From contig JBMOMC010000011.1 in assembly GCA_049325335.1 (NCBI GenBank), forward strand, positions 1 through 36,849: DNA of 36,849 bases, written 5' to 3'. Position 1 is the first letter of the stretch. The number at the start of each line of letters is the position of its first letter. The notes below the pieces were generated by a model, which made no database searches, was not told where the DNA came from, and saw nothing but the letters and a program-made list of their open reading frames with translations. The translations under genes and the position numbers were made by a program. Positions 1-36,849 of this stretch are shown here, one piece after another. The DNA comes from Nitrospirota bacterium. GTDB taxonomy: Bacteria; Nitrospirota; Nitrospiria; 2-01-FULL-66-17.

Positions 1-2
1 CG

Positions 3-149
3 CGCACGGGCGAACGCCGGCGGCATCACTTGCATGAGACCGTACCGCCACGAGCCATCCGCGACGTGAAGACCACGATGATCTACACCCATGTGCTGAA
101 CCGGGGCGGGCGCGGCGTGAAAAGCCCTGCGGACCGATTGCCCGAGTGA
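3..149 (+). pseudogene. intI: Integron integrase 3' end with in-frame internal deletion (5' part outside window)
   Basis: Frame 3 reads [48 protein letters not shown]. The IntI-specific RRHH insertion motif and the [16 protein letters not shown] terminus are present. The HxxRH and LLGH segments that normally lie between them are absent. Confidence 0.85.
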
Positions 150-299
150 TCGATGGCGGGGATGTTAGGAGGCGCAATACGCGTCCTAACACACCAAATC
201 TATTAGTTGATGTAACTTCAATAACATACTGTTATTTATGAATAGATATAGGTTCAGTGGGCTTAAAATGCGTTGCGGTTAGGAAGCGGTAGGCGCTTG

Positions 300-338
300 G
301 TTTGTCGAAATCATTAGGATGTCGAATTGTAGTTGGGC
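300..338 (+). other. Probable attI site (core GTTGGGC at 332-338)
   Basis: GTTRRRY core GTTGGGC is the exact complement of the R'' box GCCCAAC (2191-2197) that closes cassette 1. There is no attC-like palindrome upstream. The left boundary is approximate. Confidence 0.7.
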
Positions 339-402
339 TCCTGATCCCCAGCCAAAACAATTGAAACTAAGTACCAGCACCCAAAGAAATCCGGAGGATT
401 GA

Positions 403-2190: not shown

Positions 2191-2257
2191 GCCCAACAAC
2201 CGCTTCCAGCCGACGTCGGCGCTAACGCGCCGCCTCGGCTGAAGCGGAGCGTTAGAT
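2191..2257 (+). other. attC site 1
   Basis: R'' GCCCAAC, L'' CTTCCAGC with one extra base relative to L' GCTGAAG, central imperfect palindrome, R' GTTAGAT. Confidence 0.92.
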
Positions 2258-2272: not shown

Positions 2273-2830
2273 GTGATCTGCGAAATACGAAAAGCAACCC
2301 TTCAAGACCGAGAGACTCTGGAATCGCTGATCGCTCGTTCAGCCCGACAGCTTGGAGCACATGATTACACGGAGGAACAAATCGAGGGCGCACTACGCGG
2401 AGCGTTTGGCGTCGATACACAACTAATCCAAGACGGAACCTATTTTGTAGTTGAGTCGGAAGGCCAAATTATCGGCTGTGGCGGCTGGAGTCGCCGACGC
2501 ACGCTTTTCGGCGGCGACAGCCACACCGAGCGTAGCGTTGCCGAGCTTGATCCTCGTGTTGAGCCCGGAAAAATACGAGCCTTCTTCGTGGCCCCTGAGT
2601 ATGCGCGCAAGGGAATCGGTACTCTCATTCTTAAGCACTGCGAAGATAATGCTCGGTCTTTTGGTTTTCTGCGCTTGGAGCTTATGGCTACTCTGCCCGG
2701 TGTGAGACTCTATGCCAAACATGGTTACGTGGCGGGCTCTCCCATACAGCACGAGTTGGCGCCGGAATTGAATATCGAATTTGTGCCAATGAGTAAAACG
2801 CTTAATGGGAGCAGTGAACAGGGCATCTAA
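2273..2830 (+). CDS. GNAT family N-acetyltransferase, integron cassette 2
   Basis: IRKAT N-terminus, acetyl-CoA motif FFVAPEYARKGIG, LYAKHGY. The stop codon lies inside the attC R'' box. Confidence 0.9.
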   Translation: MICEIRKATLQDRETLESLIARSARQLGAHDYTEEQIEGALRGAFGVDTQLIQDGTYFVVESEGQIIGCGGWSRRRTLFGGDSHTERSVAELDPRVEPGKIRAFFVAPEYARKGIGTLILKHCEDNARSFGFLRLELMATLPGVRLYAKHGYVAGSPIQHELAPELNIEFVPMSKTLNGSSEQGI

Positions 2831-2899
2831 CATCCGCTTCGAGAGCGACCGAGGAAAGCGCTGCGCGCTTTCCTCGGCGCCTCAAGCGCGCCGTTAGGC
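2825..2899 (+). other. attC site 2
   Basis: R'' ATCTAAC (complement of upstream GTTAGAT), L'' CTTCGAG vs L' CTCAAG, long stem CCGAGGAAAGCGC/GCGCTTTCCTCGG, R' GTTAGGC. Confidence 0.92.
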
Positions 2900-2947
2900 C
2901 TCATAACAAGTCGTTCACGAAAGGAGAAACACCATGTGGCAGGCTGA
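2894..2947 (+). pseudogene. 5' stub of a third cassette (RBS AAGGAG, ATG 2934, MWQA) truncated by the inverted repeat
   Basis: Follows the attC2 crossover point. Strong RBS and ATG, then the 23-bp repeat introduces a stop. No matching GCCTAAC attC was seen in 2900-4760. Confidence 0.65.
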
Positions 2948-3017
2948 GGGGTCAAATCTTTAATCTTTAGGTCCTGTCCACCTGATTCCCCGCCGCGCGC
3001 TCGGTTCATCGTGGATC

Positions 3018-3047
3018 TTTACCCCTCATCCCTGACCGTGCTATAAG
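3018..3047 (+). promoter_or_regulatory. Putative sigma70 promoter for a leaderless transposase transcript
   Basis: TTTACC-N18-TATAAG with extended -10 TG; ATG 6 nt downstream; no RBS. Confidence 0.5.
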
Positions 3048-3053
3048 CGCCGC

Positions 3054-4031
3054 ATGGCACGGCCGCTGCGCATCGACTATCCGGGCGCGATCTACCACAT
3101 CACCTGCCGTGGCAACGAACGGCGCGACATCGTCTCGGATGACGCGGATCGGGTGGCCTTTCAGAAACGCCTAGCCCGCTGCGTGGAGACTTATCAACTC
3201 CGGTTGCACGGCGACGTACTCATGGACAATCACTTTCACCTGTTGGTGGAAAGTCCGCTGGGAAACATCTCGCCGGCCATGCGCCAGTTCAACGTCGCCT
3301 ATACCGGCTATTACAACCGCCGCCACCTGCGCAGCGGGCATTTGTACCCAGGGCGCTTCAAAGCGATCGTGGTCGAAGCCGATGCGTATCTCCTGGAACT
3401 GTCCCGTTATATCCATTTAAACCCGATCCGCGTGGGGCGCGTTCGAACCATGACGGCCGAAGCGCAGTTGCGTCGCCTTCGGCGGTACGGATGAAGCAGT
3501 TTGCGCGGGTACCTCAAGGCCCGAGACCGCGAGGCGTGGATCACCTATGATCGCGTGCTCGCGTATATGAATGGCGATACATCGAGCGGACGAGCAACGT
3601 ACGCGCGGTTTGTGGAGGGAGGCGTGAGTCAAAGCGTCGCCACGCCCTGGGACAAGGTGGTCGGCGGCGTGCTGCTGGGCGGCGAGCCGTTCGTGGCCTC
3701 CATGCAACGGCGCTTTCGGATGATCAGGGATCGCGAGCGCCCGTCGGTTCGCGCGGTTGCCCAGGTCGTACTCCCTGGGGTGATCAGCAGGCGGATTGAG
3801 GCCCTGTTGCGCGGTGAGGGGCTCCGGGACACCACGCTTGGCCGCGGGTTGCTGACCGAGTGTTTGTACCGCTACGGTCAAATGACGCAGTCGGACATTG
3901 GAACGCACGTTGGGGGAGTGGGGTACAGTCGCGTCAGTCAGTTGCGGCGGGCCTTCCGTGAGGCGGTAGAAGCTGACCGACACGTTCACGACCTCTTCCT
4001 GCGGGCGCAGCGATTGATCGCTAAAGATTAA
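3054..4031 (+). pseudogene. REP-associated tyrosine transposase (IS200/IS605 superfamily, Y1) with C-terminal HTH, split by an in-frame TGA at 3492-3494
   Basis: MARPLR..PGAIYHITCRGN, HUH motif NHFHLL, YIHLNP. The ORFs 3054-3494 and 3501-4031 share a frame, and the junction reads YG*SS where the family has YxWSS. C-terminal TQSDIG..VGGVGYSRVSQ HTH. Confidence 0.88.
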
Positions 4032-4141
4032 AGATTTGACCCCGTCGCGTCTTGCTCTTTTAATGAGTTTGTTCCGCGAAATGTGATTCAAAAATAGACT
4101 GTCCCGTTTACGTTCCGCGTCTTGAGACCAGGAGGTGATCC

Positions 4142-4510
4142 ATGAAGGTGACTGAGATCGCGTTTGCCGGTTATCCCGTGACCAACCTGAAGCGCGCGCG
4201 GAAATTTTATGAGGGCGTGCTGGGCCTGACGGTCAGCAAGGTCTTCGGGGATGAAAACGTGGCGTGGGTGGAATACGACATTGGAACCGGCACGCTTGCC
4301 ATCGGCAACATGGCGCCTGAGTGGAAACCGTCGCCGAACGGCGGGTCGGTTGGGCTTGAAGTGGATGACTTCGACGGCGCGGTCAAGCGGCTCAAGCAGC
4401 AGGGGGTCACGTTCGCCGTCGAACCCATGGAATCACCCGTGTGTCACATGGCCGTGGTCTCCGACCCCGACGGGAACTCGGTGACCATCCACAGGCGAAA
4501 GGCTGGGTAA
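4142..4510 (+). CDS. VOC/glyoxalase family protein
   Basis: ARKFYEGVLGL, LEVDD, DPDGN motifs; RBS AGGAGG. Confidence 0.9.
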   Translation: MKVTEIAFAGYPVTNLKRARKFYEGVLGLTVSKVFGDENVAWVEYDIGTGTLAIGNMAPEWKPSPNGGSVGLEVDDFDGAVKRLKQQGVTFAVEPMESPVCHMAVVSDPDGNSVTIHRRKAG

Positions 4511-4528
4511 GGATCTCTCCGGCACGAG

Positions 4529-4636
4529 ATGGCCACAGACGATAAACGTTGCGCTCGGTGCGGAAAATCGGTGACCGTCAACGCCAGGGACTACAAGCTC
4601 TTTGAGGGTCGGAGGGGGAACATTTTTAATCTTTAG
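4529..4636 (+). pseudogene. Short CxxC ORF, probably a truncated gene
   Basis: MATDDKRCARCGKSVTVNARDYKLFEG then runs into the degenerate repeat copy, which supplies the stop. Confidence 0.4.
4614..4636 (+). repeat. Degenerate third copy of the 23-bp repeat
   Basis: GGGGGAACATTTTTAATCTTTAG matches 19/23 with the copy at 2948-2970. Confidence 0.75.
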
Positions 4637-4740
4637 ACCACCCCCTGGACTGTGATAGTTGCCTCTTCTCAGAATAGCTTGCGCTCACGCTAAGAGGGCA
4701 AAGGTGAGGTGAACCCGTCGGGTCGGCCTGGGGTGAAGGG

Positions 4741-4767
4741 GTGGGGCGTATATCAATACGCCCCTAC
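4741..4767 (-). repeat. GTAG-type REP-like palindrome / possible terminator hairpin
   Basis: Minus strand GTAGGGGCGTATTGATATACGCCCCAC; 9-bp stem with 4-nt loop; overlaps the stop of the MutS-related gene. Confidence 0.6.
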
Positions 4768-12918: not shown

Positions 12919-12976
12919 CCAGCTTCTTCATCCCGAAGAGCGGACAGGCCTTCAGACGAGGCGCGACCGCAAGCGG

Positions 12977-13166
12977 CTCCAGGCAGGTCTTCTGACTCCC
13001 GGCTCATCCGATCCCCTCGTCCTTCCCGATGCCTGAGGCGTCAGTGGACTGGTTGAACGGCCTAACTCTCTCGGCCGTTTGAGGGGATCGTCCCCGGTTA
13101 CAGCGGCGGGACCGTCCCGGATTCGCACCGGGTTCCCTTTTCACGCCCTGATGGGCGACCTGGATC
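12977..13166 (-). ncRNA. Cobalamin riboswitch
   Basis: Minus strand AAAAGGGAACCCGGTGCGAATCCGGGACGGTCCCGCCGCTGTAA, CCACTG...GGGAAGG, and B12 box AGTCAGAAGACCTGCC, upstream of the btu genes. Confidence 0.95.
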
Positions 13167-13173
13167 GATGCGC

Positions 13174-13203
13174 ACTGTAGGCCAAGTGGGCCGGCCGTGT
13201 CAA
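13174..13203 (-). promoter_or_regulatory. Putative sigma70 promoter of the riboswitch-btu operon
   Basis: TTGACA-N18-TACAGT just upstream of the riboswitch. Confidence 0.65.
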
Positions 13204-35632: not shown

Positions 35633-36849
35633 ATGCGCCGTAAACGCTGGTCTGATGTGCGTGTCTCCGAGCTCCGCGGCCTCATTGGTCGCGGATGCGC
35701 GCTGGTCTTGATCCTGTGGGCAACCGCGGCGTGTAACGGCGACGGGACCGGCTCAGGACTGACCCTCAGCGTCGGATTCGGCCTCAAGCAACTCGAGTTC
35801 ACCTGGACCTCTGTTGCGGACGCGGACTACTACCGTCTGATGGAGAGCCTCGACAGCGGTGCGAGTTTCTCCCAGCGCGGAGGTCAAATCGCGGCTGGGA
35901 CGACCAGCCTGACAATAGACATTGCGGTGCATCGCCACGATTGGGCGAACGCTCGGTATCAGTTGGAGGCGTGCAATACCAGTGGGTGCACCGCGTCGAA
36001 TACCGTGACCACGCTCAGCGGCCTGCTTCAGGCAATCGGTTATATGAAGGCGTCGAACACCGAGGCGGCCGATGGATTTAGCGGGGCGGTCGCGGTGAGC
36101 GGGGACGGGGACACCGTGGTCGTGGGCGCAACGGGCGAAGATAGCAGCGCGACCGGGATCGACGGGACCACGGGTAATAACGGGGCGCTCAATGCCGGGG
36201 CGGTGTACGTGTATGCGCGGGATGGCGCGGGCGTGTGGACCCAGCAAGCGTACGTGAAGGCGGCGAACACCGAGGCGGCCGATGGATTTGGCGGGGCGGT
36301 CGCGGTGAGCGGGGACGGGGACACGATGGTCGTCGGGGCGACGGGCGAAGATAGCAGCGCGACCGGGATCGATGGCCCTGCGGGCAATAACGGGGCGCTC
36401 AATGCTGGGGCGGTGTACGTGTACACGCGAGACACCCTGGACGTGTGGACCCAACAGGCCTATGTGAAAGCCTCGAACACCGAGACCGAGGATGGGTTTG
36501 GGCGCGCGGTGGCGGTGAGCGGGGACGGGGACACGGTGGTCGTCGGGGCGACCGGCGAAGATAGCAGCGCGACCGGGATCGATGGGACTGAGGGCGATAA
36601 CAACGCAATCGACTCCGGCGCGGTGTACGTGTACGCGCGAGATGGCGCGGGCGTATGGACCCAGCAAGCGTACGTGAAGGCGGCGAACACCGAGGCGGCC
36701 GATGGATTTGGCGGGGCGGTGGCGGTGAGCGGGGACGGCGACACCGTGGTCGTGGGCGCAACGGGCGAAGATAGCAGCGCGACCGGGATCGATGGCGCCG
36801 CGGGCAATAACGGGGCGCTCAATGCCGGGGCGGTGTACGTGTACACGCG
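35633..36849 (+). CDS. FG-GAP / integrin-alpha-like repeat lipoprotein (3' truncated by the window; absent from the ORF track)
   Basis: GGAGG RBS, ATG 35633, lipobox TAAC, FnIII-like segment, then repeats YVKAANTEAADGFGGAVAVSGDGDTVVVGATGEDS...AGAVYVY. Confidence 0.9.
   Translation, partial: MRRKRWSDVRVSELRGLIGRGCALVLILWATAACNGDGTGSGLTLSVGFGLKQLEFTWTSVADADYYRLMESLDSGASFSQRGGQIAAGTTSLTIDIAVHRHDWANARYQLEACNTSGCTASNTVTTLSGLLQAIGYMKASNTEAADGFSGAVAVSGDGDTVVVGATGEDSSATGIDGTTGNNGALNAGAVYVYARDGAGVWTQQAYVKAANTEAADGFGGAVAVSGDGDTMVVGATGEDSSATGIDGPAGNNGALNAGAVYVYTRDTLDVWTQQAYVKASNTETEDGFGRAVAVSGDGDTVVVGATGEDSSATGIDGTEGDNNAIDSGAVYVYARDGAGVWTQQAYVKAANTEAADGFGGAVAVSGDGDTVVVGATGEDSSATGIDGAAGNNGALNAGAVYVYT
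36041..36849 (+). repeat. 210-bp coding tandem repeat (3 full units + 1 partial)
   Basis: Units start at 36041, 36251, 36461 and 36671. Confidence 0.92.

Follow-up and report, generated by a model that had tools for sequence, protein, structure and literature searches.

The window analyzed here, a stretch of 36,849 nt, opens with the 3′ end of an integron-integrase-like gene (1-345, forward strand; motif recognized by eye). An attI-like point lies near 332, in the same orientation as the integrase, and public contigs diverge at 333-338. These contigs share the integrase end and then carry several different first cassettes; in this genome, several integron arrays are found at contig ends. Two cassettes lie downstream of the integrase and run in the same direction. 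One is a GmrSD (DUF262) cassette (403-2166), closed by attC1 (2191-2257, forward strand, folding z of -5.4), and the other is a GNAT cassette (2273-2830), closed by attC2 (2825-2899, forward strand, folding z of -6.1). Related public contigs end at 2897-2898.

From attC2 to the left repeat of the element that follows is a distance of 48 nt. Most of this interval is a stub (2900-2941, forward strand) made up of a 17-mer (2901-2917) resembling the 5′ half of attC sites, a ribosome-binding-site-like stretch, and an ATG at 2934. With up to 2 mismatches, the 17-mer has three other matches in the genome, all on contig C14 and two of them in recognized attC sites. The remaining 5 to 6 nt (2942-2947, forward strand), just outside the repeat, are probably carried by the element rather than being cassette DNA, since the same bases precede the repeat at unrelated insertions in G002, G004, and G006; part of the encoded “MWQA” would thus travel with the element. 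A reading of the sequence alone had a third cassette cut after MWQA, and this is better replaced by a composite junction of attC-like 17-mer and element-carried bases. An intact source gene for “MWQA” was found neither in 200 genomes of the class nor in 30 relatives, which gave one match with 2 mismatches.

The element is framed by a left terminal inverted repeat (TIR) of 23 bp (2948-2970, forward strand) of the GGGGTCAAATCTT family, a consensus over 251 unique ends, and by a right TIR (4021-4043, reverse strand) that is its exact inverse and holds the stop codon of the gene (4029-4031). Both the exact pairing and the position of the stop had been noticed before, and both hold; when the window was shuffled 30 times, the longest exact inverted repeat was only 13 to 17 bp every time. 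The absence of a target duplication and the one-sided nature of the joints were likewise borne out. A promoter had been placed between the repeats, and a consensus promoter scan found none there. The TIR regions are unfolded (folding z of +1.2 and -0.3). ORFs cut by a left TIR often take their in-frame stop from it, in the window (2948-2959) as well as at L183 (1549-1934), L265, and L284; the same short C-terminal tail is encoded by the TIR in the window and in G002. One public contig matches 294-5200 with zero differences, arguing that neither the junctions nor the internal stop described below are assembly errors, with the proviso that this run is possibly the source of the window itself. 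Contigs of the same population showed no alternative joints at the window repeats, viral contigs gave 0 matches to the exact window TIR, and one plasmid record of 72,556 carries a distant relative.

The cassette remainder and its attC were said to be missing beyond the right repeat. They are indeed not there, and the right flank is itself not cassette DNA: our attC scan on this side, covering 4044-4760, gave nothing except a 23-nt local match of about 10 bits inside a glyoxalase gene. Nearest to the element, a second TIR family (GGGACAG type) is represented by one solo repeat end (4079-4105, reverse strand), which faces outward to the right. A 9-nt direct repeat (4046-4054 and 4116-4124), starting 2 nt outside the right TIR, brackets this end and is possibly the scar of an earlier round of end joining. 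The glyoxalase/VOC gene (4142-4510, forward strand) has been severed from its upstream neighbor; in G001, the homologous gene is part of an operon that has no attC. A 35-codon ORF (4529-4636), for which no full-length relatives and two unrelated-looking matches were found, is terminated by a degenerate solo copy of the window TIR (4614-4636, forward strand, 4 mismatches) at the boundary to core genes. The neighbors of the core genes past 4636 differ in G001 to G003.

A GTAG-type REP hairpin (4743-4767) lies at the 3′ end of a MutS-like gene. The spot appears to collect Y1-family elements, since G001 has a different RAYT-like gene with REPs there (L314). No empty site was found in the same-genus genomes, where the MutS-like gene has other neighbors. 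On the evidence of its two flanks, we take the element to mark a fusion point at the array end rather than a clean insertion. Farther on, the window holds a cobalamin riboswitch (12965-13178) upstream of an ABC/TonB uptake cluster, an ordinary arrangement, and ends in tandem 210-bp repeats (36041-36849) that probably encode a repeat protein.

The gene between the repeats and its family

The gene (3054-4031, forward strand, 325 codons) encodes a Y1/HUH core followed by a DnaA-domain-IV-like helix-turn-helix (HTH). It matches PF01797 (Y1_Tnp) and carries the HUH motif NHFH, the Y motif YIHLNP, and an SS motif. An in-frame TGA at codon 147 (3492-3494) interrupts it, and the protein is altered at columns 54 and 99, which are near-invariant among 33 homologues; an intact G002 copy is 86% identical in amino acids. 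The window copy is therefore a pseudogene, and the unit is dead: a broken TIRtron, a dead member of a named family. TIRtrons and their TIRYT genes were defined by Di Nocera, De Gregorio, and Rocco in 2013 (PMC3733652); they are the TnpA-Y1 subclass 2.1 of Quentin et al. 2018 (PMC6006769) and Group 1 of the RAYTs of Bertels et al. 2017 (PMC5581495). Through its motifs, its domain, and its TIR, the window unit is assigned to subclass 2.1, subgroup 2.1.2. Against the GGGGWSAS-type motif, its TIR matches 7 of the 8 consensus positions, the eighth base being A rather than C or G. The unit had been put forward as an under-described system, but the kind already has its name in PMC3733652 and PMC6006769.

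A TIR-flanked HUH/Y1 system with an additional C-terminal HTH, as proposed from the sequence, is what the motifs, the PF01797 match, and the DnaA-type HTH point to. Subclass 2.1 proteins carry a Bac_DnaA_C, HTH_23, or HTH_28 type of HTH (PMC6006769, in part). Among 34 aligned homologues, 14 match Bac_DnaA_C, and the family profile finds DnaA domain IV (1J1V, E = 0.001). The Bac_DnaA_C match is absent from the closest homologue, P0002, and the C-terminal half of the window protein alone gives no Pfam match; it aligns with the homologues over its full length. An intact homologue folded with a pLDDT of 86, its best structural match being TnpA-REP (4ER8), followed by the TnpA proteins of IS608 and ISDra2.

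The family counts at least 4510 proteins at E ≤ 1e-20 among the 8000 candidates scored; the closest named protein match is from Nitrospirota. The analyses below draw on 80 loci from GTDB and 79 from metagenomes; each scan confirmed about 590, of which these were the best. The earlier suggestion to look for flanking repeats at homologues paid off: the TIR motif, which often ends in TTGACA, is present at 265 ends in 154 of these 159 loci, across many phyla. This genome alone has four TIRYT genes, each with its own TIR family, plus solo and paired repeats. The 10 nt outside the tips (flanks of L010 to L168) are purine rich and C poor, with T or A favored beside the G run, which could reflect a target preference or be a product of repeated rounds.

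Scars at the ends of relatives

Target site duplications were sought in 101 two-ended loci and found in none, with abutting repeats of 0 to 4 nt; a shared 7-mer at both ends occurred in 3 of the 101 loci, compared to 2.7 for mismatched pairs. What was found is a different kind of repeat, confined to single ends. At 48 of 251 unique ends, the tip of the TIR together with adjoining flank is duplicated in exact tandem; the expectation is 0.005 when flanks are shuffled and 0.62 for randomly placed positions. At 10 nt beyond the tip, the count is down to 6. Left and right ends are equally affected (24 each), several ends show repeated rounds, and a replication set gave 19 duplications among 95 further ends. 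At comparison sites, duplications were seen at 0 of 114 GTAG-REP ends and 9 of 3175 GGGTC sites outside TIRs. The ends of the window element themselves show no tip duplication.

The two borders of these duplications behave differently. The flank part measures 6 to 14 nt, and 7 to 11 nt in 42 of the 48, whereas the part within the TIR ranges from 0 to 24 nt. At L199 and L196, the duplication reaches hundreds of bases into the gene and still starts about 8 to 12 nt outside the tip; L199 went through three rounds, with flank parts of 10 to 12 nt. The joints are exact in 41 of the 48, and in 39 of these the microhomology is 0 to 2 nt; the other 7 contain 1 to 3 unexplained bases. Assembly may contribute to the signal, with duplications rarer on contigs of at least 80 kb (3/28 versus 45/223, P = 0.31); the 3 come from contigs measuring between 91 kb and 3.6 Mb. 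At one locus (L007, G000:C11:52760-52826), a TIR tip is followed by at least five tandem 13-nt flank-plus-tip units running into a masked gap, which is either an extreme tip duplication or a local assembly problem.

Copies of whole units also carry a little flank. In G371, four copies (97.6 to 99.4% identical) lie in unrelated flanks and have in common 6 to 7 nt past the right tip (4 of 4) and 6 to 9 nt past the left tip (3 of 4). The two identical copies at L140 share 8 and 9 nt beyond the tips, and gene-less miniature copies in G000 share 5 to 11 nt of flank. This is not universal: at the left end, a pair 99.7% identical has only 2 nt in common, and a pair at 95% has no shared bases. An empty site was found for none of the copies, and insertion with deletion or later recombination between copies would both fit. 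Many TIRYT copies lie among other mobile elements. For G371, the two IS-like flanks correspond to positions about 590 bp from one another in a homologue that is intact. In an Rhs/YD-repeat region (L006, G000:C2:444000-453804), several gene-less TIR miniatures of about 69 to 85 bp sit at joints of Rhs with IS fragments, with 5 to 10 flanking bases in common.

Proposed mechanism and rival explanations

We propose, at a probability of roughly 60%, that the TIRtron is an autonomous-type mobile element, that its dead copy in the window marks a rearrangement joint, and that a nick about 9 nt outside the tip explains the scars. Each end would act independently. TIRYT, probably recognizing the GGGGTC repeats through its DnaA-like HTH, would nick the strand that runs from flank to GGGG, with little sequence preference, and remain attached through a 5′-phosphotyrosine. 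The bound end could then be joined to any available host 3′-OH. Were a host polymerase to extend the 3′-OH of that very nick before the joining, the outcome would be a tip duplication; a 3′-OH elsewhere would give an adjacent deletion, a one-sided joint, or a transposition with a few carried bases. In the window, the distal array end would have been fused to non-cassette DNA. The position of the cut is something we infer from the scars in these genomes: an HUH nick at this distance with release by any 3′-OH predicts a roughly fixed outer start, a variable inner end, and blunt joints.

There is precedent for the individual steps in the published passages on a relative. TnpA-REP forms a Tyr-5′P intermediate and accepts an attacking 3′-OH in vitro (PMC8266576), and a route of nicking, extension, and rejoining has been put forward to explain BIME amplification (PMC3333891, legend of Fig. 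7B). The main texts and passages covered by our literature search contain no TIRYT biochemistry and no report of TIRtron unit mobility, carried flank, tip duplications, or a link to integrons. The word “integron” has 0 occurrences in the main texts of PMC3733652, PMC6006769, and PMC5581495. It is a more tentative step, for which we would give somewhat less than even odds, to see here a mode of HUH transposition that the papers covered do not describe, in which an HTH reads an unfolded repeat, a ruler-like nick falls about 9 nt away, and independent ends make the unit self-mobile, leaving flank tags and tip duplications and eroding neighbors, array ends included, perhaps with a strand bias that aligns it with cassettes.

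The sequence-only reading went another way, to a cassette-directed HUH system whose ends are joined to attC or cassette DNA and remodel arrays independently of IntI. Several junctions do look like this. A cassette-ORF stub just past an attC abuts the left end in the window, at L049, and at L284, an end terminates an array ORF at L265, and attC-like sites are cut by ends at L199, L042, and G000:C40. In 13 of 14 cases, drawn from 10 genomes, the element points the same way as the cassettes (nominal P = 0.002), a count to be read with care, as kin are not independent and the control was too small. The proposed nick gives no reason for this alignment, which counts against it and leaves a residual lead for cassette targeting. 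GC skew was considered as the cause of the co-orientation and rejected: 3 of the 4 TIRYT genes of this genome are on the positive-skew strand, and the two array-linked ones oppose each other. TIRtron ends equally cut IS110-like, intron-RT-like, Rhs, and other genes (the IS and intron labels are our reading of translations). The junctions have no fixed position relative to attC, and 2 of the 4 TIRYT genes here are distant from any attC match.

For counting attC sites, one heuristic was dropped for its many false matches, and a strict one, blind to GCCGAAC-type sites, picked up just 2 of the 159 loci; because these over- or undercalled attC, two covariance models (R1 and R2) were used, trained mainly on sites of this genome, R1 including one site from a test locus (L023). 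Both are insensitive: the window's attC2 scores 14.8 bits with R2, and R1 had matches within ±1.5 kb in only 7 of 30 integrase loci. R2 misses some sites, so the rates given here, on both sides of each comparison, are lower bounds. With R2, an attC lay within 6 kb in 7 of the 80 GTDB loci and 0 of the 79 metagenome loci, which are shorter; the matches inspected in 6 of those 7 look genuine. That leaves 152 of 159 loci with no attC match within this distance. As a control, 78 source genomes were searched, the top 131 to 138 candidates per genome being scored, with 10 matches unlisted; 43 of the 50 genomes with attC matches were kept, and 7 with a single weak match were dropped. Within 6 kb of an attC were 6 of 150 TIRYT genes (those listed, of 221 in the 43 genomes) and 2 of 89 IS4/IS5-type transposases (all 89 DDE_Tnp_1 genes; Fisher P = 0.71). 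Compared to a genome background of at most 1.2%, the 6 of 150 listed are a few-fold excess (P = 0.011). The enrichment expected of homologues thus comes out as few-fold over background and like that of ordinary ISs; given an insensitive model and a small control, there may be a weak attC preference. We consider a cassette-directed system improbable, and IntI-independent remodeling along with it. The window element mostly ends its array by chance, in our estimation, since arrays are variable islands that gather mobile elements, rather than through attC targeting.

The main rival is a staggered double-strand cut near the tip, offset by about 9 nt and made by TIRYT with or without host nucleases, followed by fill-in and end joining, with a mobile TIRtron again at the array by chance. 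The near-fixed flank part of 7 to 11 nt resembles such a stagger, and end joining can add bases like the 1 to 3 seen at 7 of the 48 joints. A fixed stagger would not, however, give an inner end point that varies from 0 to 24 nt and, in L196 and L199, over hundreds of bases; target duplications are absent, and the relatives studied, in the part of PMC3333891 drawn on here, act on single strands. We regard it as unlikely, and still as a better candidate than the readings that remain. Slightly less probable even than cassette targeting is a domesticated, nontransposing TIRYT, with slippage during host replication or misassembly at G-rich repeats as the source of the duplications, and with multi-copy units moved passively along with neighboring elements. 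It would accord with the statement in PMC6006769 that there is no formal evidence of autonomous mobility, which the passages of PMC8266576 do not supply either, with the many copies found among other mobile elements, and with the lower frequency of duplications on long contigs. Slippage needs microhomology at the junction, though, and 39 of 41 exact joints have 0 to 2 nt; duplications almost never occur at REP ends or GGGTC sites outside TIRs, 3 were found on contigs between 91 kb and 3.6 Mb long, and the G371 and L140 copies are bounded within 9 nt of the tips in unrelated flanks.

Finally, the repeats might belong to an unrelated DDE insertion sequence, with the Y1 gene as a passenger. TIRs of 20 to 30 bp are typical of DDE elements. 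Here, in 154 of the 159 loci, which come from many phyla, the TIRYT gene is bracketed by the same motif, and each of the four TIRYT genes of this genome has a TIR family of its own; this coupling, with neither a target duplication nor a DDE transposase, refutes an insertion sequence of that kind, which we would credit with next to no probability. The earlier expectation that the unit is not a DDE element with target duplications is therefore sustained.

Significance and comparison with known systems

Subclass 2.1 is the largest RAYT-like group, present in 14.9% of species, and its activity and mobility are left open (PMC6006769, in part). The scars in relatives predict the strand that is cut, the distance of the cut from the repeat, the bases that move along, and which intact copies were recently active. 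Activity is thus directly testable, since these are concrete predictions and a cleavage and strand-transfer assay is described (PMC8266576, in part). If the ruler-like cut is true, TIRYT would be an HUH enzyme capable of repeat-directed, sequence-tolerant joining, and TIRtrons would quite generally give rise to gene truncations in variable islands. The idea of integron remodeling has gained little support. The authors who put forward a link between subclass 2.1 and prochlorosin diversification went on to qualify it (bioRxiv 10.1101/2020.03.09.984088), a precedent that counsels caution with arguments from association.

The window unit has the plan of a TIRtron: a Y1/HUH gene framed by TIRs starting in GGGG, the right one overlapping the 3′ end of the gene, and further TIR copies, solo or in pairs, at other places in the genome, with no REPs. 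It shares the NH[YF]H, Y[IV]HLNP, and SS motifs (PMC6006769, Table 1, in part) and the Bac_DnaA_C-type HTH. It departs from published TIRtrons, as far as their published passages go, in the A at the eighth position of GGGGWSAS and in being a pseudogene; those passages also report no mobility and describe neither a cut site nor tip duplications, nor any carried flank or integron setting.

With E. coli TnpA-REP and its REPtrons (passages of PMC3333891 and PMC8266576; PDB 4ER8), TIRYT shares the core fold and, in our proposal, the 5′-phosphotyrosine chemistry and a nick-extend-rejoin route to tandem copies. GTAG families, too, have REPs reiterated in tandem with flanking DNA (PMC3733652, in part). 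REPs, however, fold into hairpins that stand on a GTAG foot, and cleavage falls at dinucleotides such as CT, whereas the TIRs here are unfolded. As a point against our proposal, its nick would be set by distance and tolerant of sequence, unlike the cuts of the TnpA-REP enzymes studied, which are at specific dinucleotides (PMC8266576, in part). The TIRYT protein also has an HTH, and its gene appears to move, which is said to be unseen for REPtrons in the passages cited. That the unit is not a GTAG/CGTC REPtron was correctly anticipated; in addition to the unfolded TIRs, its NF047646 score of 62 to 69 bits is under the cutoff of 80.

Nor is it a member of IS200/IS605, again as anticipated: the protein has 325 amino acids and a Y---NP motif, and hairpins are absent. 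The TnpA proteins of that family (IS608 and ISDra2) share the Y1 HUH fold and the lack of a target duplication. IS200/IS605 elements encode a short TnpA with a Y---Q motif, and their two ends, which differ from one another, bear subterminal hairpins and use a target of four or five nucleotides, whereas TIRtron ends are identical unfolded repeats with no fixed target word. Members of the IS1111-attC group and group IIC-attC introns are, like this unit, found inside integron arrays. They insert at a fixed position of attC; the positions of TIRtron junctions, in contrast, vary, and 95% or more of the loci show no attC nearby. With IS91, ISCR, and Helitron elements, TIRtrons share one-ended joints, capture of neighboring DNA, and the logic of strand displacement. 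Those elements use one origin, one terminator, and an unrelated larger protein, whereas the two ends of a TIRtron, with their even division of duplications between left and right, look equivalent.
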